From: Paraspadella gotoi
Taxonomy: Eukaryota; Animalia; Chaetognatha
Direction: 5' to 3'
Assembly (NCBI GenBank): GCA_051294375.1
Contig: CM119271.1
Coordinates: 6,697,632-6,761,631, forward strand
Length of the DNA: 64,000 nucleotides
A model generated the notes under the pieces. The model did not search any database. It saw nothing but the letters and a program-made list of their open reading frames with translations, and was not told the origin of the DNA. The stretch's first letter is position 1, and each line of letters begins with the position of its first letter. Positions 6,001-62,975 of this stretch are shown piece by piece. Position numbers and translations under genes: made by a program.

Positions 6001-9000
6001 CCACATCTTATTCATGATTATTTATGATGTTGGACCAACTTTTGCTAATGATAATATATTTTTATTATATATATATCATTTTTCGGTAAAGGTTTTTAAT
6101 TTTTAACATAATTAATTCGAATGATAAAGTTTCATACGTAATTTTTCAAATATTGATCGAGCGGTACGTAATGTTAAGCTGCAAGTTAAAAGTAACGGTA
6201 ACCAAAAACTAACTCACCAAGCCCGTCGGGATTTTTTACGGTGAGTTCGTGGAGTATTTCTTTGGTCTTGAGATTCTCAGTGACGTTCCCACTGTAACTC
6301 ATTCGAGAAATGGTGGAGGCAGTGGAGGTTACATCCGACCAATAGATCATTTCTTCATGATAATCGAAATCCAGAGCCACAGCGTTGGTCAAGTCGCGGG
6401 CCACGAGTTTAGGATTCTAAAGATAGAGCCAAACTTCGTCAATGGGGTGGGTCAGAAGTTTGATTTGGGAACCTTTCCAAATGAAACTTCATACATTTCT
6501 GAGAAAACTTTCAATGGAGCAAAATTTTGTAAAATGGCAAGAAGCATTAGTAATTAATTTTTTAATATTTATTTATAGATAGGAAATGTCAAAAAAATTT
6601 TTTTGATTTTTTTATTTTTAAAAGCAGATTCAAATAGCTTATAAAAAGTTATCTACACAAAGTATAATTCTTTTTTCAATATTTTGATGATAAGTGGGTT
6701 AAAATTGAGAAAAACCTTAAAAAATCATCATCATCATCATCATCCGATAATTTTAGCAGTTTTTACTAATTTTTAGTAATAAAACATCAAAATTTTAGAA
6801 AGTTGTAATTATATTTTTTGCTTAACTTTTTAAGCTCTATCAGAATCAATTAAAAAAACTTAAAATATCCAAAAAAAATTTTTAACATTATATAGCAATA
6901 TAATAATATTAATTAGCGAATTAGTTCGGAACATTTTTGCAAAAAAATATTTTAACACAATAATTAATACCAATAATGGATTAGTTTAATGCTGTTCCCA
7001 TTGAAATCTGAATTTGGTCGGCTACCGCTACTAAAGACGTTGAAAATCAAAGAAAAGAGCAAAAAAGAAAAGGATCGACGTGGATAAGATTCCTCGTCTG
7101 ATTTGATGGCATAAACAACTTCGATAATTGGCAGATGAACCAGACTCACGTTTCCTTCCAGAGATATGGATCGAATGTAATAACGGTTGGAGACGAGAAG
7201 TCGAGGTTTTACTCCGTCCGTTTCGGTGACGATGCATCTTCGTTTGTCGAACTCGAGTCGAAAACCGTGGCCGCAGTAGCACTTGAACGAGCCAGGCGTA
7301 TTGATGCAATATTGAGAGCACGGCAGGTTTTCGCACTCGTTTATATCTGGTTAAAATTAGTAATTTAGTAAATTAGTAAAATAAATATTAATTCTTTAAT
7401 TTTAATTTAATCAAATCTACATAAAGACAGATATAAACTAACTAAACCATCTTCTAGTGGCTCCTCAGCTATTGTAACCATATGAAATTTCACTCTCTTA
7501 CATCATTTAATGGAGAGACATAAGAGGAATGAGAAGGAGGCTGAAAAGGAGAAATCCCAGTAATCCCACGAGCAAGAATTCGTTCAAAACTAGAAAACAT
7601 TTCTGCCATTTTCTGTTGAAATAAACCTCGCTTATAAACAATAAAACGTTTTCCGTACTTATCTCAAACGCAAAGAAAAGAAAGAAATAAAAGAATTGTA
7701 TTGATAAAACGCCATGCATTAATACAAACTTACCTTCACAAGAGACCGAGTCGTTTTTCAACTTAAACCCGGTTTTGCAATGACAAGAGAATCCGACAAC
7801 TTCGTCTTTACAGATGTGATCGCAAGGATGAGATCCTTGACATTCGTCCACATTACAGTCGTGCTCGTCGGAAAAATCGGGACAATCGTTGATGCCGTTG
7901 CAAAGAAGTTTCCGCGGAATGCAGAGATCGTTGGACTCGCACTTAAAGTTGTCGGCACTGCCGCAGACCTGGGCGGTGGCGCTCGGCGAGGCGGTGGTAG
8001 GACAGTGGACTGGATCTTCGTCGCTGCCGTCCTGACAATCTTCTATACCGTTGCATTTGTGAGAGTTGGGTATGCAACGACCGCCCTTGCACTGAAACTG
8101 ATCTTTGCTGCACGATTGGTAGGTGCAAGTGTCGGGTTCATCGGATTTGTCGCCGCAGTCGTCGTCACGGTCGCAGTAGAACGACATCCGGATGCAATGA
8201 TAGTTGGCGCACTGGTACTCGTCAGGTTGGCAGGCCAGAGGAGTGCACCCTTGCTCGGGATGCTCGTCGCTGGCGCGTTCGTCGCCGCAATCTAAGATTG
8301 AAATTAAACTTGTTACTATAATTTCAATACTAAAATAAATTTTTTTTGCAATCGAAGCTAACTAACCGTTGTCGCCGTCACATAGCCAGGTAGTCGGGAT
8401 GCATCGGCCAGTATTGTTACATTTAAACTCGTTTGTTTTGCACTGACGATGTCGACATCTGTCGTGTTCGTCAGATTTGTCATCGCAATCCGCGGCTCCA
8501 TCGCATGCCCACGACGCCGGAATACAGTGACTGTTATTGCAGGTGAATTGATTGGTGGCACAAGTGTAGGTGCAATTCTTTTCGTCAGACATGTCTCCAC
8601 AATCTGGAAAAGATTTTTAAACATTTTTAAAGTACATCTTTTATTTTTCTTTTCCCAAAATTTTACTTTCTGTGAACTACCAAAAGGAACGAAGGGAATT
8701 AATTACGATACCCGACCATATTGTTCGACGTTTTTTCATTCATTTTAAATAATTTTTACTTAACTTTTCATTAATTAGTTAAGATATGATATATATATTA
8801 GGCCGGAACAGGTTGAAAACTAGAAGTTCTCTCAAATAAATAATGGTTAAGTGACTGTTAGAGAATATGAAAATGAAAATAATTTTTAAAATTTAGTTTA
8901 TTGATAAGCGCACGGAAGCATTTAAAGATTATTTTATAACTATATAAATTTTAAAATTTTTTTTGGAATTTTTCAATTTTTTTTAATAGATTTTGATAGA

Positions 9001-12000
9001 GCTTTAAAAAACTATAAAATTCAGCCAATGATGATGATGATTTTTTAAGGTATTTTCTATTTTTAACCAATTTATTGTCAAAAATTGAAAAAATTGTAGT
9101 ACTAACTTTCATTTAACTTTTCAAGCTCTATAGAAATCCATTTTTAAAAAATAAAATTAAAAAAAAATTTTGTCATTTGTTAAATATTATATATATTAAG
9201 TATATATATTAAGTGCAACAACCCAATGAACTAATTCAAAAAGTTTCATTGAAAATCGATTTAGTACTAATAGTCTAATACTAATAGTAGTAGAAGGAAA
9301 AAAATTTTTTTTTTTTGGAGAAAACTAGAAGTTATAAAAAAGTGTTCAATTTTGGCCTGCCTTATTGTGTACCCCCATTGTTCTCAGGAGAACAAGGTCA
9401 AGGATTTATGCATTTAAATAAAATCCGAATCACTCACCATTGTCCCTGTCGCAACGCCAATTATTCGGAATGCATTTGGTATTAGCGCATCGGAATCCGC
9501 CAGAATCGCAGGTGGAAATGGTTTGAGACGGGCAATCGATCTCGTCGGAATTGTCCCAACAGTCGTTTTGTCCGTCGCAAATCCAAACCGGAAGGATGCA
9601 ATTCGTAGTCGTGTTGCAGGGTACGAAACCGTAGTCGGGGAGATTCGCCACTGGAATAACCGGACCCGCGACGACGGGTGGCCCGTGGCCAGACCCAGCT
9701 CGGCCCTCCCGTCCGCGACGAGCCGTCGCCACGTCGGAAGAATTACAATTGACGGACGGGCAGTCCATCTCGTCCGAAGCGTCGGGACAATCCCAAAGGC
9801 GATTGCAGCGAAAGGTGGCGTCGACGCACATCCCCTGTCGACATTTGAACTCGGTTCCTTCCTCGCAAGTGCAGTTGGCTTCGTCAGAGTGATCGCCGCA
9901 GTCGTTCTTCCGGTCGCAGAGGCGCGACACTGTGACGCAGCGATTCGTCGTGACGCAAGAAAAAAATCCCGATGGACAAACGCGCGTGGCACAAAAAGTG
10001 GGATCCTCATCACTTTTATCGTGACACTGTGATTCGCCATCGCAGGTCAGCGAGTAAGGGAGACAAGAGCCTTCGCGACACTCGAATTCGTCGGCGCCGC
10101 AGGTGACGTTGAGGCGATCAACGCACCTCTTACCCTTTTCTCCATCGGCCGAGACTTCGAGCAGGCGGCCTTCCCAGCAGCGGCACTCCACTTCACCCGC
10201 TGGAGTAACGGAGCACTTGTCAGAGCAGCCGCCATTGATCTCCAGACAGGGGTTGACGCTGCAGTCATCGGCGTCGCTCGCCACGGCCACGATACCCATC
10301 GGCTGACGCATGAGGTTTTTGGACAAAAAGGTCACGTCTCCGCCAGTGAACTTATTCACGCGGACAACGGCACGGAGAATCCAGTCGGTCCAGTAGATAA
10401 AGTCGCCGTAAACGGCGAGGCCGAATGGATGCTTGGGCTTGTCTCGCAAAACCACTTCCCGCTCTCGCCCGTCCAACTGGCACCGCTCAATCTTGTCCAG
10501 CCGGGCGTCCGACCAGTACAGCTTCTGCGCTCCGTGATCGATGGCCAATCCGTTGGGGACACCGACACGGTCGACGATGATGCTCTCCACCTTCCAGCCC
10601 GTCAAATAGGCCCGTTGAATAGAAGGTTGGCGTTCGTTCCAGTTGGTCCAATACATTCGAGATTCGCAACTGTCGATGGCGATGGCGCGGGGATGATCCT
10701 CCGATTGAAGGCGAACCACCTGAGTCGGTTCCGGAACATTATCCAGATCCTTGATTATCAGTCTGTAGATGGACGAGTGGGAGTAGGATGTCCAATAAAG
10801 TTCGCGCACGGAGGGCTCAAAGGCGATGCCCTCGACGCTTCCGACCTCCTTCTTCAGAGTTCTCAAATCGGTGCCGTTGAAGAAGACTGTTTGAATGTCG
10901 TGACGGTGGACGTCGCTGAAGAAAAGACGAGAGGCGTTGTAGTCGACCGCGAGCGCGATAACGTTGCGCATCGTCGACGACACGATCGGCTCCTTGGGGC
11001 TGTTCCGGTTCAACTCGGCGAACATGTGTAGCGAATCGATTTTAGTTGCCTTGGAGTACAGCAGGAAAGAGTCGAAATCTTCGCAGCGCCGCCCATCGGC
11101 CGACATCTTGCCGTGGGCGCAGTAGCAAGTCCCTTCCGTATCATTCGACAACAGGCAGAGCTCTCCGCAACCGCCATAACCGTTGTCTCGGCCGCACGGA
11201 GAGTTGGCCATCGCTGGTTGTCGGGCCAACCCGTAAAACTTTACGTCCTTGAGAGCGGGGCCAAGATCAGACTTAATAGTCGCGAATTCTTTTCCAGTTG
11301 CGCGGTGGACTCGCTTGATGCTCGAGTTGCCAGTGTTGCCCGCGTTTGAATCCGCCCAGTAGATAAATTCCCCAAAATTTGTAATCGCGAATGGGTCGAG
11401 GAGGGCCTCCGGGTCGGACAAAATCGTTCGTCGATCCTGGCCATTAAAATTGACCATCTCGATAGAGCGGGCGCGAGAGTCGACCCAATACAGTAGATCG
11501 AGTTCCATGTCGATCGTCATTGCGAAGGGATAGATACGCGATTCGTCGGTGGAATTGACAATCACCGAACGATCGGACCCGTCAAGGGCGGCGCGTTCGA
11601 TTTTGGGCGTGGCACCAAGGTCCGACCAAAACATGAGACCACGGTGGGGCGCGACGACGATGGCGCGCGGAGATTCCATATCGCCACTGACGACCACGTA
11701 GCGATGGCTCCCGTTCAGATGCGCTACTTCAACGACGTCGAGGTTGTTGTCGGTCCAATAGATATGCCCGGCGACCCAATCTTTTATCCAGAAAGAAAAA
11801 AATTTGAATGAAAATATAAAAAAAATATTAAAGGGAATAGTAACTGTTCCCTACCTATGGCCAAGCCAGTCACCATTCCGATTCCGTCGTTGATGACGGT
11901 TTCCCTCTGAGTCAAATCTCGTTTTATGCGGTTTATTTCTACGGCGTCGCGATCGACCCAGTAAATGTAATCCTCGGCTGCGGGGAGAGAATATAATTCA

Positions 12001-26724: not shown

Positions 26725-28963
26725 TCAACTATCTCCAGAATTCTCGCCCGAACCGTTCTTAAATCCCCTGAGTGCATTCCATTTTCCCAAGATGGTCGCC
26801 GAAATGATGTCAGTCTCTCGCAGCAAATTCACGGCTTCCTGAAGTTTAATATCTGCCTCGTCCATCTCTTCCGATTGTTTTGTTTCGATCTCGATGTTTT
26901 CATCCTTCAAACAGACTTTCTGAAGGGTTTGCGACAATCCCTCCGGACATTCAGACCCATCCGCTTCCTTCAATTTCTCCGAAGAATAAGAAGCGACGTT
27001 TTCTTTGTCGGCGCTCCGGGATCGGCCCTCTGAGGGGAAAACGGCTGAGCCTCCCTGTCCGCGACGAGGAACTATGACGCCTCCGGTTCTCATATAAATT
27101 CTTACAGCTTCGAGAGCCACGATCTGGTCTTCCTCGGAGATGATATACTCCTCAAGCACGTTGTGCCAGAAAACATGATGGGCCGGGTGGATGCGCGGCG
27201 ATAAAAGTCGCGGTCGCGCCTGCACGCGATAGACGGCGACGATAAGATTGTGGACGAGCTCCTCGTGAGTAGACGGCTTTTCGGAGCAACCCTTAGGCAC
27301 AATGATTGAGTTGGTCTGCCTAAGGGCCTGCAAAAACTGCTCCGGAAGTAAGAGGGTTTTTAACTCGCGATGCATCCACCACTGGGTACCCATGGCCTGC
27401 TTATCCTCAAGGTTCATCCAGTGAAGAAAAATTATGTTTAGGTAATTGTAGCGCAGGTAACCGCTTCCCTCGCTGCGCCAATCCCTGGACTCTTCGCCCA
27501 TGAGATAGGCCTTTTTGGCGTCGACGATCGCTTCTTTCCCGTACCCCATCAACCCCTTGACGTAGCCCTGCTTGGAAAGATTGATTTTGACTCGATTCTG
27601 ATCGCGCTTGTCGCAGTTTTGAAGGATTCGGTACTCCTTCATAAAGAATTGCATGGCGCGCCGGTAGTCGTCCTCTTTCGTAGCTCCGGCAGCTCGGCAC
27701 GAAAGGCGCTTCATATAATAATCGCCATAAAATGAAGCAAACGTGGCGGTGATTTTATGATCACCATAACGCTTCTCCGCCTCTTTTAGCACCATGTCGT
27801 GGCCAACATCGCTCTCCTGCACTTGTCCGCCCATCATCTGGAGGTGCGCCTCTTTACTCACCGCGTGAATGTGCTGGATGATGACGTGACACGCGTCTTC
27901 CTTTCCCTCGTACCGATCTCGTGCTTGCTGCCAGTAATCTATAGATCTGGCGCAAAGGTAGCGCAGCTCGGTCTTCCACTCCGCATCACGACGAGTTCCG
28001 TCAATTAGTGGAGCTTTCTCGCGAATCTCCAGGGCCGCGTCATAATACAGACCCATGATGCAGGGGTGGTCCTGCAGTTTGAAGGAGAATTCACCAAATT
28101 ACATTAGCATGCCATGAATGTAAAGGAGAAAAATCGAAAAAAAAGCAAACCAGAACCTCCATGTCGTAGATCTGCTTGGCCCGGACCAAATCTATCTCCA
28201 TATTCTGGATTAGTTCTTTTCGCTCCACTGAGTCGCCCTTTTTTTTCGTGGCCCTGACAACGCAGTGGACCTTTTCTATTCTGATTATGAGCCCAAGAAG
28301 CAGAGGATGATCGCTCCAGTCGGCTTTGTCTAAGACCGCGTCTCGGAATGCCGCGTAGAATTCTCGATCCACTTCTTCCATTCGATCTCTCAAATACCAA
28401 AAGGCGCCGACAACGCTCGCCTCTTCAACGCGCCCGAAAAAGCTCTTGTGGAAGATCTGGCTCCAGAACGACTCAACATATTCGTGGTCACGCTCGTCCT
28501 CAAGCAGGACCTGGCGAAGGGCGTGAAAAATAAGGCGAGAAAGTGCAGCAAACTCAACGCAGCTGGAAGGATAAAGTTCCTTGGAGCTAAAATCGACGGT
28601 GATTTGGCGTAGCTTCTCGATCGTAGTCTCCAAGTGGCGACGGAGCAAATCTTGAATAAGCGAGCGCGTCTCTGTTAACCTGTGCCACGGAACTTCGATC
28701 TGGTATCTCGAGGCGGCGCCGTCCGCTTCGACGCCGTCTATTTCTGAGGCGGGAACGACGACGGGTTCCACGACCCCGAGCTCGACGGCGGCGGCGAGGA
28801 AGTCCTCGGCTGGGGTGTCCACTTTAAAGCCAAGGGACGACTCCACCCACTGAGCCTCGACAAGAGAGAATCCAGATGCAGGCAGAACGCTCCAATGCAA
28901 GAGTCGCTCGAATTCTGTCTCGTTGATTCCGAGCGATTTAAGAAAAACTTCTTTTTGCGTCAT
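26725..28963 (-). CDS. Uncharacterised helical-repeat (TPR-like) protein, ~717 aa, 2 exons
   Basis: Two long ORFs joined in frame by a GT-AG intron at 28072-28156 (..IYDME|DHPCIMGLYYDAALEIREK..). TPR-like segments include DHKITATFASFYG and DYRRAMQFFMKEYRI. The N-terminus resembles a STAND winged-helix. ATG 28963 was chosen because upstream sequence is AT-rich and non-coding-like. Confidence 0.7.
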
Positions 28964-29186
28964 GGTCAATAAAAAAAAAAAGTTTTCAACGTATGAAAGA
29001 TTTGGAGATAACCTGACGTTGAAAAAGCAGATTGGAAAAAAATAAATAACATCCAATTGGTTGAGGACGCGACCCATTAAAAAATAATCATAATACATTA
29101 ATAGTCATTAATAGAAATGCATAATTTCACATAGGTTGTGTTAAAAACTAAAAGGACAACAAGAAAGGTTTGTAAGCTTTAAAGAT

Positions 29187-36278: not shown

Positions 36279-42530
<6,252 letters not shown>

Positions 42531-42875
42531 GATCGCCTCTTTTTTGTTTTGCGACTTCGTAAAAAATATCTTCACCCAAGTTATGAATAATTTGGTGTAA
42601 ATATCACATTACAAAATTTAATTCATTGTAATTAAAAATATAAACCGTGTTTTAATAAAACAACAATTTCTATCACAGATCTTGCATTTAAAAAATGTAT
42701 TAAAAAAGCATTGAGGAATAACAAGTCCGAACAAAATCTGGAAAGTGACTAGACTAGAATAAAAAATCTTAAAAGTATAAGGATCGTTGCAATCGGCATA
42801 AGAAAAATCTGGATTGACGACAAATTTTTATACTAAAAAAATCAAATTTGAGAAAGGAAAATTAATTTATAAACA

Positions 42876-43525
42876 TGAAGAGACAGTGATATTTGTTATG
42901 TGTTAGTGATAGAACCGTTCAATATAAGCAGTCCCTGAGCTTCGGATCAGGCTGTAACACCATGTTACAGGCGGGTTAAGCGCCCCGTCCCTCTTAACTG
43001 CCAGACGACCACCGGGCTAGAACCCCGGACCTTTGGTTGGGAGGCGAATTGACTTGCCTCCGGCACCAATGGCCGCTGATGAACGGTTGGTGGATTTTAG
43101 TCCACCATACATCCCCCTCCCGTAGGGAGAAGTGTGTTGCGTCTCTTCAGTGAATTGTTGTTGTTGGTGGAAAGTTCATACCAAGTTGAGGCATGTCCGC
43201 TGATGTGTTTGTGGCGGAAAGTGCATCGCCAGGTTGAGGCATGTCGCCTGAAAGTGTTGTTGTTGCTGTTGTGTTCGGAAGTCGGGCTCACCAATGAAGA
43301 GACAGTGATATTTGTTATGTGTTAGTGATAGAACCGTTCAATATAAGCAGTCCCTGAGCTTCGGATCAGGCTGTAACACCATGTTACAGGCGGATTAAGC
43401 GCCCCGTCCCTCTAACTGCCAGACGACCACCGGGCTAGAACCCGACCTTTGGGTTGGGAGGCGAATGACTTGCCTCCGGCACCAATGGCCGCTGATGAAC
43501 GGTTGGTGGATTTTAGTCCACCATA
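42876..43525 (-). mobile_element. Non-autonomous LTR retrotransposon in miniature (TRIM) with tRNA-like sequence inside each LTR
   Basis: Near-identical ~230-bp direct repeats (42876-~43111 and 43295-~43525) with TG..CA ends. On the minus strand the 5' LTR is followed by PBS TGGTGAGCCCGAC (43281-43293), and the 3' LTR is preceded by polypurine tract GGGAGGGGGA (43112-43121). The flanks share (TA)AACA. There is no coding capacity. Confidence 0.9.
43005..43076 (-). ncRNA. tRNA-derived (Gly-CCC-like) degenerate sequence within LTR; second copy at ~43423-43492
   Basis: 72 nt with acceptor stem GCGGCCA/TGGTCGT, A-box-like TGGTGCCGGAGG, loop CTCCCAA and B-box-like GGTTCTAGCCC. The anticodon stem pairs poorly, so this is probably not a functional tRNA. 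Confidence 0.65.
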
Positions 43526-44493
43526 AACAGAAAGAAAAATTATATTTTGCGTTGTCAATTAAAAAAAAATAAAGTACCGAGGAAAATTATAGTTACAGTT
43601 TCTGAAAAAAAAATGAAAAAAGTTTTTTTTTTGTCATAGTCAAATAAACTGATCAGAGACGCAGCCCCTGAGAAAAAAAAATTGAAAAAAAAAAAATTAT
43701 AAACAAAGAAAAATTTTATTTTGCGATTGTCAATTAAAAAAAAATAAAGTACCATGGAAAATTAAAGTTACAGTTTCTGAAAAAAAAAGGGAAAAAAAAT
43801 TTCATTGTCAAAAAATAAATTAATCAGCAGACGCAGCCCCTGAGAAAAAAAAAACGAAATAAAAACCCGATGTTGCGATAGGAAAATGATAACATGCACG
43901 AATGCGACGCCTAATTTTACGAGTTCAATCCTAATTCAATTTTTTTTAAATAAAAACGCAGAGAGAGAGAGAGAGAAAAAAAGAAAGAAATCAAAAGGCA
44001 GCAGCAGAAGCAGCAGGAGAAAAGAGAGAGCCTCTGCAGAGCCAGCTGCAGACTCAAAAGGCAGCAGGAGAAAAAAGAGAAAAAGAATAAGCCCCTGCAG
44101 AGCCAGCTGCAGACTCGTTTTTTCCCCCCTATGAATCAGTGACTAGGAAAAGAGAGAGGGAGAGAGACATATAATTAAAAGAGAAAGAGAGAGAGAAAGA
44201 AATTATATAGAAATAAAAAAGAAAATTTGTTTGTTTTGATTAAACGTAAATAAAACATATTTAATAACTGTCCTGACTTAATTTTAAGCACATCAATGAT
44301 GTGAAGCTGGATATAAATTTTCAGCTTCATACACCCAACTTTAATCATAAAAATGGTGATCTATAATTTGGAACGCCAACGACGACGCCACTTATGTGCA
44401 AAACCACAGAAAAATCGCAAAGCGATTGCGACGATAAAAACAAACCCAACTACGTAAATTTCTCTTAATTTTTTGACGTTAAAATGTTTTCAG

Positions 44494-46094
44494 TCAGGAC
44501 TTTTTTCCTTTCTCCTCCTCTTCTTTATTTTTAGCAATCATATAGCAAATTCCTGCAGTAACTGCGGCGGAAACTCCACCAACCGCTACATAACTCAAGG
44601 CGGTGGAGATGCCCGCATCCCCTCCGCCTTGGTCACTTTCCCGATCCCCTGTTTCGGAGCTTCGACCTTCACAATGACAAGCGGGCGAAACGAACTGACC
44701 CACGATAGGATCGTATGGCCTCACGAGTCGTTCACGTTGGACCGGAACTAATTGACGATCCATTAATTCGCAGCCTACTTCAGAATAGGCGGGCAATACT
44801 TGAGGTACAACAGCTTCGCGAGCGACGACCACGTTTTCGCAATTGGCAGGGAGCCCAAGCTTTCCTGAATTTGTTTCAAAAGTCAATAGGTCATCGCAGG
44901 AAATGGATTGTATAATTTTTCTAGTCCGCTAATTCTTCCGTCACCTGAATATTTTTGTCGGAGAAGTTCCTGAAATTTGACTGCGCAGGCGTAAACTTCG
45001 GGCCATTGGGCAATTCCTCCGGCGACGTTGTTATACGGATTGGCGGGATCCACGATCAGAGGTCGTTGCTCCATCACCTCCCATGGAACTTCGGCGGTTT
45101 TATAATTTTTTTCCCAAACATAACTCAATTTTTCCTTATCGATGAGGACTTCGAGAACTTGATTGAACCAAACCAACATATCGTATTTGGTTCCGGCCAA
45201 TTTCTTTTCATAAGTGTAGAGACAAAGCAGTTCGAGCAGATACGACGGGAATCGTACGCGATTGTACCTTGGCTTCACCTCCGTCTTAAACCAAAATTTA
45301 ACCAGGAGCATCAATTTTTTAAGGTTGTTATTGTTGGTGATATTTAACTTATCGCCAAGAAAATCCTTCTGCAACTCGGCCAAACTAGCTGAGAAATGAT
45401 CGGCAAACCTCATGCTGTGCTCCTGTTTGTGGAAATAGCTGAACACCGGGGCACCATCCCTTCTTTCGGGCGCCACACCGCAGTAGGCGTAGAGGTCAAA
45501 GGCGGGAATAATGTCGACGTCAATCACGTCTTCCGCTTTCTCGGAATCCTCGTCCGGAACCCCATACTCCATCTTAACCCCTCGCGAATGGCTGCAAGGG
45601 ACGAGCTTAAGATTGAGCAAATATTCGTTGTGATAATTGTAGAGCGGAATGAAGGTTTTGTCTCTCAGCTGAGCCAGCGGCACGGCATTTGTCTTTCTCG
45701 TCCAGTAATCACCTACTTTATTCCAGCAATAATAGAAACCGAACTTGTCCATCACGCAACGAATAATCTGCTCGCGCTTTTCCAAGAAATCTTGCGGATT
45801 TGACAGTCGGCCACCTTGCTTTTCTACGAAGCAAACTAGATCGACGTCGACGTGGCCTCTGACCGCGGTTCCTTTTGTCAGTGACCCGCTCTTGAAAATG
45901 CGTTTAAACGACCAAGGAAATTCACGCCCTTCATCGCCGCACATGTCCCGGTGCGATTGCAAAAATCGGGAAGTCTCGTCGACGGCTTTGTTCAAAAATG
46001 TTACGGTATCCCTACTCAGTTGAACATTATCGGAAACGAACTTGGTCAACTCTTTTGCGTTCGGAATGGAATCGAAAAACGAAGAAATCTCCAT
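44494..46094 (-). CDS. 2'-5'-oligoadenylate synthetase-like nucleotidyltransferase; predicted spliced form 506 aa with C-terminal TM segment (unspliced form 403 aa, stop at 44883)
   Basis: Pol-beta NTase motif GSLTKGTAVRGHVDVDLV and third Asp in VDIIPAFD. OAS1_C motifs FSASLAELQKDF, LKKLMLLVKFW, PSYLLELL and RPLIVDPANPYNNVA. Candidate intron 44865-44944 joins it in frame to ORF 44494-44864. Confidence 0.9.
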
Positions 46095-46534
46095 TCCCCG
46101 TCCAATTTTTACTCCGAGCTACAAATCAAAATAAGTGAGCGCAAAATGCACGTTATAAAAAGGGCAAACTCAAAATAACAAGAAAATTAAGAAAACCATG
46201 CCATTTATATGAAATAAATATTAATATTAAATGATACAATCGAAGATGACAAAAAATAAACAAATCACTATCTAATGAAATTACGCACAACATTGGAGAT
46301 GGTGAAAGATTATGAAGAACATTAAATGTTTCAAAATTATTTTCTGAAAACAATGATCGTGAAAAATACGTAGTACTTCCAACAAAGTTACAAACTTCGG
46401 GAAGGTTAAACTTAGTTTGTGAAGCTGGAGATTTTGTTTTTAGAATGAGACTGAATTAAAATTGATTTTTGTTAATTACAAATACAACGTCCATGCAAAG
46501 ATTAATTCTAACGACTTTAAATTCATCCAGTGTG

Positions 46535-54726: not shown

Positions 54727-57700
54727 TTAGCGAGCGACGCGCCCGCGGCCAGTGATGGTCGAGATGACAGAAATGTTTGACTCTGGATGCGAGGAGGACT
54801 CGGTTGGAGCCTTAGAAAAATTGAAGAGCGTTGCTAAACATTCTTATATTAGTTCCCGGTAAAAGTAGCAAAACTTTATTTTTACATGTTGACAATTTTA
54901 CAAGCGCCCGTAGAAATACGCTGTCATTTTCAAACAAGTGGTTATTTCATTGATTTTAAAATTTAGTTGAGTAGAAAATATTAAAACTATTTATGTGTTA
55001 AAATTTTATATTGATCAGTTAAGATATGCCTTGACAGAAAGTTAGTTGGCTTGTCAAATCGGGTTTCATTTTCCAATTCACTGTTTTTAAATTCAATTTT
55101 TTTTTGGAACTTTTCGCACTTTTTTAAACAAAGTATTTATTAAAATATTAACAATATTAATATCCTCAGAAAGCCCTTAAAAATATGAAGAGAATTATAT
55201 ACTTAAGAATACTGTAGTATGAAATTTAACTGGCCCAGCTTTAATTTAATTAGGATATTCAAAAACGAGACATCTTTTTAAAAATTAATAGCTGGAGAGT
55301 AAATTTATAATTTTTATCAAATTGTAATTGGCTATCTTAAATCTTTTTTTCTCAGGCTCTTTCATGATACTTATATAAATAATAATATTTTTGTTATAAT
55401 AATTTAAACAGGTCATATATTTTAAAAAAAGATTTAAAATTTAAAATAATTCACTTTTGACACTCTTACTTGAACCAAGGCTGGGCAGCTTACTTTTTAT
55501 GTTAGAGCTTTCATAAGTATATCAATCTCTTCATATTTTTAAGGGCTTTCTGAGGATATTAATATTGTTAATATTTTAATAAATACTTTGTTTAAAAAAG
55601 TTATAAAAGTTTCAAAAAAAAAAAAAGAATTTAAAAACAGTGAGTTTGAAAATGAAACCCAATTTGATAAACTGAGGCGACTTTCTATACTTAACTGATC
55701 AATATAAAATTTTAACACATAAATAGTTTTAGTATTTTCTACTCAACTAATTTTTAAAATCAATGAAATAACCACTGGTTTACAAATGACAGCATATTTC
55801 TACCGGAGCTTGTAAAATTGTCACCATGTACTTAGGAAGATCCATTGATATCATATAAAATTACATTAGATCTCAAGTGCAATATTACAAAACTGAAGAC
55901 AATTACGAACCTTAACTGTAAAACTTACGGCACGTTTAGAATTCAAAGTGGGGATGCTTTGACCTACGGTGGATATCGTCTTTATAGTTCTCGACTCCTC
56001 GCTTTCAGACTAAAAAACACAACAGAAGCATTGATTCATTTATAATTAAATTATAAACGCCAACTAATGCGTAGTAATGGTAAGGTGGGATGGTTAATGG
56101 TTATTTTAGTTCGTGTATGCACATCATCGCAGAGGAATCAAACTCAAGAAACCGGATCGGCGACGAAAGGAAAAGAAAGAAAGAGAAAAGAAAAGGAAAA
56201 GGAAAAGGAAAAGAATGAGAAACAAGTTGTCTCATCAAAAATACTTTTATTAGAATAATTTTAGGTTGGGTCACTTAGTTAAAACTTTCAAGTTAACTGA
56301 TTTTTTAAAATAATATTGGACATACAAAATAGGAAAGCATAAAAATTAGAAACCGATTAAAGAAAATCTACAATTATTTAAGGTAGGTGAAAATGAATTG
56401 TGCAAACTTATAATCAATAAAATTAAAACGATCTCATTTGGCCGTATCATAAAAAAAAAAAATCGTACCTGAAGACCGGTCTCTTTAGTCCTTTTGTGCG
56501 GCAGGTCCTCCGTCTCAATGACCAGTGACGGAGAATGAGCACGTTTTCCCGCTGGCGAAGTCACTGTCACCGTCTCTTCCTGCACTAACGCGGTAGAGCC
56601 ACCGTTAACGCTCGCCACGTTCGCCGGGGCGCCGGCGGGCGAATCATCTACTGGGGATCCGGACTTGGCCTGCTCGACTTCGTGGGGAGTCAAAAAGTCG
56701 GGCGCGCCTTCTAACGAGTCGCTGGTAAAGTCGATCTCCGTATCAGAGTTGCGCTGGGACGACTGAGAATGAGGCGAGTTTGACAGGGGAATGACGTCTT
56801 CGTTTCCCGTCAGCATGGGTCCCGGCTCTGGCCGCGCGTTTTTGGGAGGAGGTAAGTTGAGCCGCGACCGACCGCTCGTCGCCAGAGTCGGCGTCGGGGA
56901 CTTTCCCTTTCCAGTGAACAAGGATCCTGGATCGGTCTTGGAGCGTTGATGAGCGGCATTGACGGAATCTTTGAGTTGATTGACCGGGATGCCGCCAGAG
57001 CCGACGCTGTTTACGTTTTTTCTTTGCCTTATCGTCGGCACTATGTCCGGCGGAAGATACTCTGACAACTCCTTTCGTCGTACGTATTTAGCTTCGATTG
57101 TCATGCCTTCTTTAATGATGTTACTTTGGGTCCCTTGGCGATGGACTATATCCATGAAGGCTTTGATGTCGTAAGTGAGGTCTACGTTTAAACCGTCCGA
57201 TTTGTTAAACTGAAGTCCTATAAACCACATCGACGTGGTTAGAGGGCCGGAGGGCTCCGAAATATCTATCAATTCTGGATCTTCCTTCGGGGATTTAGAA
57301 CCTTCTGAGTGATCAGGGCCTTGATCATTGTCAGTAACATCCTGAACCTGGTCGTTATCGGCCTTAGGCGATTTTGACGGCTCTTCTTCATCCTCCTTGG
57401 TGAATTTGCGAACGTTTACGTGGGCTCGATTGATCACTGGATTCCGCTCGAGGTTGCCGACTAGGACGCGGATTTTGGATTCGACAAGTCCGACCCATTC
57501 CAAGTGATGCTCCGGGCTGCTTTTGGTCAGCAACACGATGAAATGCTTATAGCGAAGAAAAAAGTTAGGAGGCTCAAAAAGCTTGGACCATGTAGCTTTG
57601 TTCTCCTTTATGTCTTTGGTGATTTCTAGTCCAGTCTTAAATGCTTCTTCCATGATCGTTCTCGAGCTCACTGTGACATTGTACGTAGAATTTTGTTGAG

Positions 57701-59195: not shown

Positions 59196-60020
59196 TTAAG
59201 GTCCAATATAAACAAAACGAGCACTGCATAAAGTATCATAGCGAATAAAGCCGTCCTTATAAAGTGTAGAAAAGATTAACTTTTTACCTTTTTCAATCGA
59301 CACAATCTTGACGAAATCGTTTCGAAGAAACAATCTCTGAACATTCTTCAGAAATTCTTCATGGGAGGATTTCTCAGCTACGTCAGACGATTCAAAAAAA
59401 AGAACATTATTTATACTTATCTTATAAGATTTTGGACGACATTGATAAATGGAAAATTCTAAATCAAGCGCGTCGGCTGCATTCTTCAATACATCTCCAA
59501 AGTTGCTTGAGCTGCCGTTCAATTTCACAGAATATAAAAATTCGCATAATGGTTTCAATTGATAAAGCTGTCGTTCATCTTGTTCAAATGAAAATTTGAA
59601 TGAATCATCTCGAGCAGTGAGCGGGGCTGGTACTATACGAAAAATGGAATTAAACTGTTTAAATGTTTTCACAACCTGGAGGTATTTTGCCAACTCTTCT
59701 TCTGGGGGCTCGTCCATGCCAGCCACATTTTTTAAACGATTTTTCTCATAAAGTAATTTTTGATAGATATTTTGAATTTCATTTTTCGTTAAGGTGGATG
59801 CTTTTTTATCCAACAGAAGCATATCTATTTCGTCCAGACCGAATAATTGATCACAAGCTATTTCATCACCCCCTCTTTGAGCCAATACATTCTGAATGTA
59901 TTGTTGTAAATTTTTACTCTTTTTATCAGCAACAAATTTCAAAAAACTTTGCAAGTCACTTGTTTGTCTGTATTTCAAAATATCCAATTCCATTTCTGCA
60001 GTTAATGATTGCAAGTATAC
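59196..60020 (-). CDS. Terminal exon of an uncharacterised gene; C-terminal part weakly resembles the CDKN2AIP/NKRF dsRBD-like domain
   Basis: Open frame of ~274 codons directly after a T-rich acceptor (TTTTTTTTAG|G at ~60021). The segment NFGDVLKNAADAL..KISINNVLF..VQRLFLRNDFVKI recalls the CDKN2AIP C-terminus from memory only. Upstream exons were not identified. Confidence 0.55.
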   Translation of the reverse strand, partial: VYLQSLTAEMELDILKYRQTSDLQSFLKFVADKKSKNLQQYIQNVLAQRGGDEIACDQLFGLDEIDMLLLDKKASTLTKNEIQNIYQKLLYEKNRLKNVAGMDEPPEEELAKYLQVVKTFKQFNSIFRIVPAPLTARDDSFKFSFEQDERQLYQLKPLCEFLYSVKLNGSSSNFGDVLKNAADALDLEFSIYQCRPKSYKISINNVLFFESSDVAEKSSHEEFLKNVQRLFLRNDFVKIVSIEKGKKLIFSTLYKDGFIRYDTLCSARFVYIGP

Positions 60021-61385: not shown

Positions 61386-61798
61386 CATATAACCTACAGA
61401 GTTCGGACTAAAATCTTACCCCCCTAATCGATCCTCCCACACGCACAATTGTTTTACAATTTTTTAAAATTTTTTATAGCAGAAGAATCGTTAGGGATTT
61501 TGCTATCTTTTGGATTATATTTAGTTTTGCTATGTCGAAAAATATTAGTATGAGAAGCAACCGAAAACCAGGAGTCATGTTTGCTCCGCGCCCAAACAAT
61601 TAAAAATCAACTACATAAATATTTGATCTCCTGCAAAAGTTACAATGATTAACCTAATGGGTTTCTTTATGTTTGTATTGAGAGTTGACGTTATTCTAAG
61701 TACAATACACACATAGAATTAATGAAAAATCATTACTACAAATTTTTAAAGCAAACAAATTAATGCTGCGCAGCAATACATTAACATTTGTAATAAAA

Positions 61799-62975
61799 AA
61801 AATCTTAGAAGCAATAAGGATCGTCGCAATTCGCATAAGAAAAATCTGGATTGACAACAAATTTTTATAATAAAAAAAAAATCAAATTTGAGAAAAGAAA
61901 AAATTAATTTATAAACAAAAAAAGAAAGAAAAAAAATAAATATAAAGAAAGAATACGAAAGGAAAGAAAAAAGAAAGAAAAAAAGAAAAGAAAGAAAAAA
62001 TATTCAGAAGAACAGAACACGAAAAGAAAGTATAAAAGAAAAGAAAGAAAGAAGAGAAAAGAAAGAAAGGAAAGAAAGAATAGAAAGGAAAAAAAGGAAA
62101 AGAATAGAAAGGAAAAAAAGAATAGAAAAAAAGAAAGAATAGAAAGGAAAAAAGATAGAAGGAAAAAAAATAAAAAGGAAAAAAAAATAAAAGGAAAGAA
62201 AGAATAAAAAGGAAAGAAGGAATAAAAAGGAAAGAGAAGAATAAAAAGGAAAGAAAGAATAAAAATGAAAGAAAGAATAGAAAGGAAAGAAAGATTAGAA
62301 AGGAAACCAAGAACAGAAAGGAAAAAATAGAAATAAAAATAAAGAGAGAGTGACGAGAAGAAAGAACGAATAAAAAACCCGATGTTGCGAATATGCAAAA
62401 ATGATAACATAACAAATGCTAAGCCTAATTTTACCGAGTTCAATCCTCATTCAATTTTTTTTTTTTAATAAACCGCAGGAGAAGAGAGAAGCCAAACTCG
62501 TTTTTCGGACGAATGCAGCAGCGGCAGCAGCAGAGGCAACCCAGAAAAAAAAGAAATCAAAAGGCAGCAGCAGAAGCAGCAGGAGAAAAGACGAGAAAAA
62601 GAATAAGCTCCTGCACGAGCCAGCTGCAGACGCGTCTTTTCCCCCTATGATCATGCACAGGGAAAGAGAGAGGGAGAGAGACATATAATTAAAGAGAAAA
62701 GAGAGAGAGAAAGAAATATAAAATAAAGAGAAAGAAAATTTGTTGTGTTTTGATATAAACGTTAAACAAAACATTTAAAAACTTTTCCAGCTCTAATGTT
62801 TAAGCACATCGATGATGAGAAGCTGTTAATATAAATTTCTCCAGCTTCATACACACCCAAATTTAATCATAAAAAAGGCGATCCTACCTAATTTGGAACG
62901 ACGACGCACCAACGCCACTTATGGCGCAAAAGCGATAAAATATCGTCCGGCAAACCGCTAAACGATTTGCGACAA
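61799..62975. mobile_element. Dispersed non-autonomous repeat, copy B (no TRIM; expanded GAAA-rich tract ~61915-62350)
   Basis: Shares TAAGGATCGTCGCAAT..AAAATCTGGATTGAC, CCCGATGTTGCGA, TTTTACCGAGTTCAATCC, GGCAGCAGCAGAAGCAGCAGGAG and AACGCCACTTATG blocks with copy A. Confidence 0.75.

Follow-up and report, generated by a model that had tools for sequence, protein, structure and literature searches.

A high-copy TRIM with a decayed tRNA-like cassette in each LTR, assigned to a new family within Helenus

Results and Discussion

Overview

The 64,000-nucleotide stretch of DNA analysed here (the window) carries, at positions 42876–43525 of the minus strand, a 650-bp miniature LTR retroelement that is almost certainly a genuine and complete TRIM. 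The reading that we consider probable is that of a non-coding, high-copy TRIM with a decayed tRNA cassette that likely acts as an internal Pol III promoter, and that was probably copied and inserted by the enzymes of a tRNA-Trp-primed, autonomous Gypsy element. On a string search and a by-eye reading of published consensus sequences, the element is set apart as a new family within Helenus.

Element structure

The termini of the element are TA...CA, as placed from junction contigs. Reading along the minus strand, the 5' LTR (43295–43525; 231 bp) is delimited by loose contig ends behind 43525/43526 and before 43295, and the 3' LTR (42876–43109) is 234 bp in length. The two are 97.5% identical over 236 columns, differing by one substitution and four small indels totalling five bases. 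The core between them is 185 bp long and non-coding and includes two imperfect 48-bp direct repeats (43155–43250, minus strand); no ATG-started open reading frame above 40 codons is found in the element (the longest has 40). A tRNA-Trp-like primer-binding site (PBS; 43281–43293, minus strand) lies one base (43294) beyond the CA of the LTR, and a polypurine tract (PPT; 43112–43121, minus strand) is followed by a 2-base TG spacer (43111–43110) and then by the 3' LTR. On the plus strand, the 4-bp target duplication AACA is found at 43526–43529 (5' side of the element) and at 42872–42875 (3' side). The initial annotation had described two direct repeats of about 230 bp around a non-coding core, and a miniature LTR retroelement with PBS and PPT on the minus strand; anatomy and junction contigs bear out this description.

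Copies in public sequencing runs

Part of the stretch is present in 11 of the 13 public sequencing runs listed, nine of which come from one organism (A) in three studies; five runs were compared (that run X5 is RNA is a guess only). Positions 42400–44000 are covered by 10310 contigs in run X1, 21734 in X2, 1331 in X5 and 2137 in X8, and the unique flank by single contigs. In these four runs, all from one organism, depth is raised over the core as well as over the LTRs. Summed contig depth does not equal copy number, and distinct junction contigs are the safer measure: among the rows listed for run X2, 135 exit behind 43525, 97 behind 43526 and 103 before 43295, giving at least 232 and at least 103 distinct junction contigs and the dispersed, multi-copy state of a Helenus family. 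The element belongs to a high-copy family with many insertion sites. Two low-depth contigs in run X10 (organism B) are too few for claiming a second host, and a metagenome scan with the LTR-PBS junction returned three matches, all due to chance (20–22 bases in bacterial-looking DNA).

The same runs bear on the differences between the two LTRs of the window copy. In run X2, 97% of contig depth at the substitution site carries the letter of the other LTR. Many contigs also have the variant of the other LTR at three of the four indel sites, so that some of these differences are probably assembly errors. The G run of the PPT is longer in many public-run contigs than in the window copy. We infer that the window insertion is very young, with gene conversion as an alternative source of the LTR likeness.

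Termini, target duplication and empty site

Rows of flanking sequence past the 5' end of the element read N-T-A-T on the plus strand (runs X1, X2 and X5), and those ahead of the 3' end read A-T-A-T (run X2). Agreement within these rows, from which letters identical to those of the window are excluded, is only about 0.4. The patterns at the two ends match in a 4-bp register only, which argues for LTRs of the form TA...CA, a target duplication of 4 bp and a preference for ATAN-like targets; the AACA of the window copy deviates from this family pattern. Of the two duplications previously proposed, AACA (4 bp) and TAAACA (6 bp), the junction contigs therefore uphold the shorter and speak against the longer: a 6-bp duplication would require an invariant TA at positions -6/-5 of the 3' end, and this is absent from the flank rows. 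An LTR beginning with TG was rejected for most copies, as it would require CA directly behind 43525, where rows beginning with C go on with T rather than A; no contig row among those listed ends behind 43111. The TG after the PPT is part of the core, not of the LTR.

The element interrupts an AT-rich host repeat (42761–44403) that has a paralog at 61797–62931 and high contig depth. This repeat is itself high-copy; it contains a 170-bp tandem duplication (43523–43693 and 43699–43865), and its second copy shows an A/G-rich expansion. The initial annotation had pointed to an empty site at about 61905–61920. A single TAAACA is indeed present there, but homology is limited to the left flank (61797–61917, 88% identity), beyond which the sequence turns into an A/G-rich simple repeat. 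The element-free repeat unit at 43699–43865 is better evidence of the empty state. Contigs linking 42875 to 43705 were obtained in four of four runs (two to five contigs each, the short side being just 18–25 letters). Contig 27 of run X8 crosses the 3' junction without a differing letter, reaching 63 letters to one side and 56 to the other; this junction is thus no assembly artefact of the window, unless X8 is the window's own source.

The tRNA-like cassette

Each LTR contains a tRNA-like cassette on the sense strand of the element: at 43422–43492 in the 5' LTR (minus strand; LTR positions 34–104) and at 43004–43076 in the 3' LTR (minus strand). An A-box-like motif, which we take to have one departure from the consensus, lies at 43473–43484 (minus strand; 3' LTR copy at 43057–43068), and a B-box-like motif with the GGTTC of Helenus lies at 43432–43442 (minus strand; 3' LTR copy at 43014–43024). 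The cassette retains the acceptor stem, the variable loop and GGTTC; the boxes keep their spacing and the cloverleaf its top half, whereas the stems of the D and anticodon arms are broken and the T loop is one base short.

Standard tools are silent on this likeness. The initial annotation had proposed a check with a tRNA covariance model, counting silence against its own reading, and the standard Rfam model gave no score (no tRNA match in the cassettes at E-values up to 5 or 10). ARAGORN called no tRNA in the cassettes with default settings. At 85% stringency, it made 15 calls in the window, 12 of them outside the element, and reported both cassettes as Gly(CCC) pseudogenes; a second call inside the element (43345–43420) is unsupported by either of the two models described below.

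Two tRNA models were run without filters. With a model built from 35 phage tRNAs, the cassettes score 8.6 and 6.4 bits in the window-wide search (ranks 4 and 8 of 14), with E-values of 0.008 and 0.053 within the element; a sequence-only version of this model matched one cassette at an E-value of 8.5 and left the other unmatched. The second model was built from 48 aligned matches to animal-type tRNAs, taken from contigs in bacterial assemblies that resemble host contamination and judged eukaryotic by eye, with 16 bacterial-looking loci excluded. With this model the cassettes rank first (3' LTR; 16.7 bits, E-value 0.008) and second (5' LTR; 13.5 bits, E-value 0.088) of 13 matches in the window, these E-values being rough owing to a short calibration; the next best match has 9.7 bits, and the alignment to the cassette covers model positions 1–73. 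In pairwise comparison with 52 animal-type tRNAs, when 550 tiles are ordered by the average score of their ten best alignments, the two LTR tiles come first and second, with 6 and 1 of 1000 shuffles reaching that average; for the best single tRNA, the corresponding numbers are 34 and 97 of 1000. The model and the pairwise tests draw on the same tRNA set, and the two copies of the cassette count as one observation.

Many bacterial assemblies (loci L009–L125) carry eukaryotic arrays of 5S, U1/U2 and tRNA genes, apparent host or plant contamination, and Rfam confirmed the contaminant 5S at 19 of the 20 loci scanned. At loci L056 and L115, a 5' part resembling a tRNA A box replaces the 5' half of the 5S sequence, which recalls the heads of tRNA/5S hybrid SINEs.

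We consider it very likely that the cassette derives from a tRNA. This relic is decayed and could not function as a tRNA. The tRNA-shaped stretch reported earlier for each LTR is thus present in both, on the sense strand and at the top of the animal-type ranking, with a weaker likeness than had been claimed; the tRNA-derived LTR sequence that characterizes Helenus is detected weakly, by the animal-type model and not by Rfam or default ARAGORN. Its proposed identity as tRNA-Gly did not hold up: "Gly" reflects the CCC loop alone, the best pairwise matches are to Cys, Ser, Lys, Gly and Val tRNAs, and no isotype stands out.

LTR folding

The LTR as a whole folds strongly (-84 kcal/mol for the 3' LTR, z -3.8). 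A 7-bp hairpin is found at the LTR start (43504–43523, minus strand; 3' copy at 43088–43107). In the fold of the 3' LTR, a predicted 9-bp stem (43496–43504 with 43332–43340 in 5' LTR coordinates) closes the region 43332–43504 (minus strand), which would enclose the cassette together with a second domain of several hairpins (43346–43420).

Primer-binding site and helper element

The claim that the PBS is one mismatch from the complement of the tRNA-Trp 3' end holds for bee tRNA-Trp (12 of 13 bases; Kojima Fig S2). The PBS of Gypsy-32_NVi agrees at 12 of 13 bases, and among 74 fetched tRNAs the best agreement is 11 of 13, common to two Trp tRNAs, one Trp-like tRNA and one Gln tRNA; all of these are sequences of other hosts rather than tRNAs of the window's host. 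No alternative letter is listed in the PBS at 15% of depth in run X2, so the Trp mismatch seems common to the family. Part of the PBS is copied anew from the primer tRNA in every cycle; together with a family-wide mismatch, this predicts a variant tRNA in the host that pairs fully.

No reverse-transcriptase motif that could mark a helper element was found in the window. The CsRn1 lineage of Gypsy resembles the element in its tRNA-Trp PBS and its typical 4-bp target duplication and differs in being autonomous and coding (available portions of PMC3630058), which makes it a candidate helper only. By this analogy, a helper of the CsRn1 type is a somewhat better than even prospect.

Comparison with Helenus and other known elements

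Helenus (TRIMp3) comprises TRIMs with tRNA-derived LTR sequence and was probably born many times (Kojima 2024, PMC10886601; here and below, from the available portions of that paper). Helenus elements range from 311 to 1263 bp, and those of animals have 4-bp target duplications and a Gypsy-type PBS. The GGTTC of box B is conserved, and TRGCY/YGG in box A, found in most families, is typical rather than defining. Pol III transcription of Helenus is untested in that paper, where the group is known from sequence alone; according to Kojima, Cassandra is the only TRIMp3 with demonstrated Pol III transcripts.

The window element shares with Helenus (PMC10886601) its build as a short non-coding TRIM (650 bp, under about 1 kb) with two LTRs, a tRNA-like sequence with GGTTC in both, an internal part that is bounded by PBS and PPT and a 4-bp duplication (AACA here, in a 4-bp register family-wide). 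Individual features have closer counterparts in the same paper: Helenus-2_SyJa/SyUm has a tRNA-Trp PBS of 13 bases after a single T, five wasp LTRs have the termini TA and CA, a similar CCC loop occurs in fish families, where by eye the cassette is not followed by a T run, and a short spacer often separates PPT and LTR. The element differs from bivalve and wasp Helenus in its more decayed cassette, with an A box that reads TGGTG and AGG where most Helenus have TRGCY and YGG. The cassette lies near the 5' end of the LTR, and some 130 structured bases come after it; in most Helenus it is placed, by eye, from the middle to the 3' part and followed by a T run (PMC10886601).

Five strings taken from the element gave no match in the Helenus supplement of PMC10886601, and no resembling family was seen by eye in the available part of that supplement, fungal consensus sequences excepted. 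In the literature searched, we found no later addition of Helenus families and none matching the window element. All structural features have precedents in Kojima 2024. The initial annotation had suspected a new family of a rare class rather than a new class, and this placement holds. The Trp-primed wasp LTRs of Helenus-2_SyJa/SyUm carry, by eye, a core resembling a hammerhead ribozyme behind the tRNA part; the word hammerhead occurs once in the text of PMC10886601, whose available portions make no mention of such a core; in the window LTR, no hammerhead-like core was seen and no ribozyme family was matched by Rfam.

Cassandra and Ajax are likewise TRIMs with an internal promoter derived from a small RNA; they differ from the element in their 5S boxes and, for Ajax, a 5-bp duplication (available portions of PMC7215508 and PMC10886601). 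The 5S test failed for the window LTR, in which no 5S rRNA-derived boxes were recognized. TARE1 of tomato provides a plant precedent for TA ends, both of its LTRs being TA...CA in an amplified family; unlike the window element it is an autonomous Copia element with a 5-bp duplication and without a tRNA cassette, and its TA is a mutated TG, whereas the window element still has a TG between PPT and LTR (available portions of PMC3701649). Further literature for comparison includes HaSE3 (PMC3272025) and PMC13570524, each available in part.

Proposed mechanism

The cassette is a putative working Pol III promoter, an assignment made from sequence that we regard as fairly probable. Pol III would start near LTR position 34, making the first 33 bases of the LTR U3 and the remainder, from position 34 to the end, R. 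As four T in a row do not occur on the sense strand, transcription would continue across the core and the entire 3' LTR and stop in the flank, the first downstream run of four T being a candidate stop at 42858–42861 (minus strand), 14 bases past the element. The absence of such a run is unremarkable: it is also absent in 328 of 1000 shuffles. A Trp-type tRNA would then prime the first strand at the PBS, and the PPT would prime the second. The resulting linear DNA would carry two extra bases per end, namely the TG after the PPT at one end and the spacer with the first PBS base at the other, and integrase would trim two bases from each end to leave TA...CA. The helper supplying these activities would most likely belong to the CsRn1 lineage, given the Trp PBS and the 4-bp duplications.

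Tentatively, and with the odds somewhat against so extended a reading, the element may represent an independently born TRIMp3 family, in a phylum without reported ones, that is active at hundreds of sites and has a design of its own: a tRNA promoter at the LTR start, no terminator, a folded R that takes up nearly the whole LTR, fixed TA...CA ends and sequence-preferring integration.

Alternative explanations

The most serious competitor to a working Pol III promoter is an ordinary Pol II TRIM in which a captured tRNA or SINE head is now a dead promoter, kept, if at all, for its fold. We consider this unlikely, at about one chance in four in our judgement. The degenerate boxes and sub-threshold tRNA scores are consistent with it, as is an AT-rich, TATA-like stretch at about 43337–43346, and the strong fold of the whole LTR means that structure alone may be under selection. 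Against this, the spacing of the boxes and the upper half of the cloverleaf have survived, the LTR has no AATAAA, and in the coarse table for run X2 the A and B boxes show no alternative letter at 15% of depth, in comparison with ten other places that do. A cassette that is simply GC-rich structured RNA, such as a packaging or strand-transfer signal with a chance likeness to tRNA, would fit the readiness of ARAGORN at 85% stringency to make calls elsewhere in the window and a second one in the element, the lack of a stand-out isotype and the roughness of E-values from a short calibration. It is nonetheless improbable, as both the animal-type model and the pairwise tests place the two cassettes at the top of the window, over their full length and on the sense strand.

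A 5S rRNA remnant behind the cassette, which would make the LTR a double capture of a tRNA head and 5S sequence (a Helenus/Ajax hybrid), was tried and rejected, and we regard it as very improbable. The best local 5S alignment does lie directly behind the cassette, covering the box A region, and by eye the element shares 12 bases with both Ajax LTRs. The idea arose post hoc, however, and support is marginal in the pairwise test and lacking in the profile: in alignments to 27 animal-type genes, out of 64 distinct 5S sequences, the mean score is equalled by 34 of 1000 shuffles and the best score by 37, 7 of 546 window tiles reach the mean, and the profile scores -0.1 bits, a value reached by 139 of 1000 shuffles. 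No match was obtained by nhmmer with all 64 sequences or by Rfam for 5S in the LTR. Scans of viral sequences for eukaryotic 5S or tRNA gave three matches that were not 5S, then none and none. Least probable are two neighbouring SINE copies mimicking LTRs, the arrangement that the initial annotation had itself named as the outcome that would overturn its reading. Each repeat does have a tRNA-like head, but PBS and PPT lie exactly at the junctions, the A-rich or simple-repeat tail and variable duplications of SINEs are absent, and the core is repeated as much as the LTRs. The sharp, family-wide ends in a 4-bp register rule such a pair out.

Host and genomic context

The genes of the window are animal-like. 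Its poly(A) polymerase is 85–89% identical to the four closest proteins and about 70% to the next (named) ones; for TRAPPC8 these values are 68–70% (two closest proteins) and 42–48%. In a quick tree of 33 rows (the window plus 32 chosen from about 120 matches), for which the tool warns of long branches, the window forms a long branch apart from the molluscs, nemerteans, Lingula, deuterostomes and two insects included; none of the rows was recognized as nematode, ctenophore, annelid or wasp. It is plausible that the host represents a new phylum for Helenus.

A gene on the same strand (38299–42608, minus strand) has its start codon (42530) 346 bp downstream of the 3' end of the element. This gene resembles the DDX46/Prp5 helicase; its first open reading frame had no match in Pfam. 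On the other side, 1.4 kb from the element, a single-ORF gene resembling 2'-5' oligoadenylate synthetase is found at 44883–46118 (minus strand; PF10421, E-value 1e-24, with a weak SMODS match). Two MITE-like elements (38866–39761 and 54883–55830) have terminal inverted repeats, of 32 nt in one and 141 plus 168 nt in the other, and both apparently end in TA, like Tc1/mariner derivatives. Imperfect long inverted repeats (6588–6910 versus 8925–9171) flank exons within 6588–9171 that we take to belong to an LRP1-like gene. Three open reading frames of 457, 337 and 274 codons (26725–29104 and 59196–60020, minus strand) match no Pfam family, and the 457-codon frame has weak TPR-like neighbours in the Atlas.

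Implications

The new family leaves the picture of what Helenus elements are unchanged. It illustrates that tRNA cassettes can decay below the thresholds of Rfam and ARAGORN, and that TA ends conceal such elements from finders based on TG...CA. The family also provides material for testing the Helenus promoter and for finding the helper; if the tentative reading of an independently born family of its own design is true, nature would have supplied plentiful copies on which to test whether tRNA-bearing TRIMs are transcribed by Pol III. The family is young and high-copy and adds another animal lineage, which supports the repeated birth of SINE/LTR hybrids.
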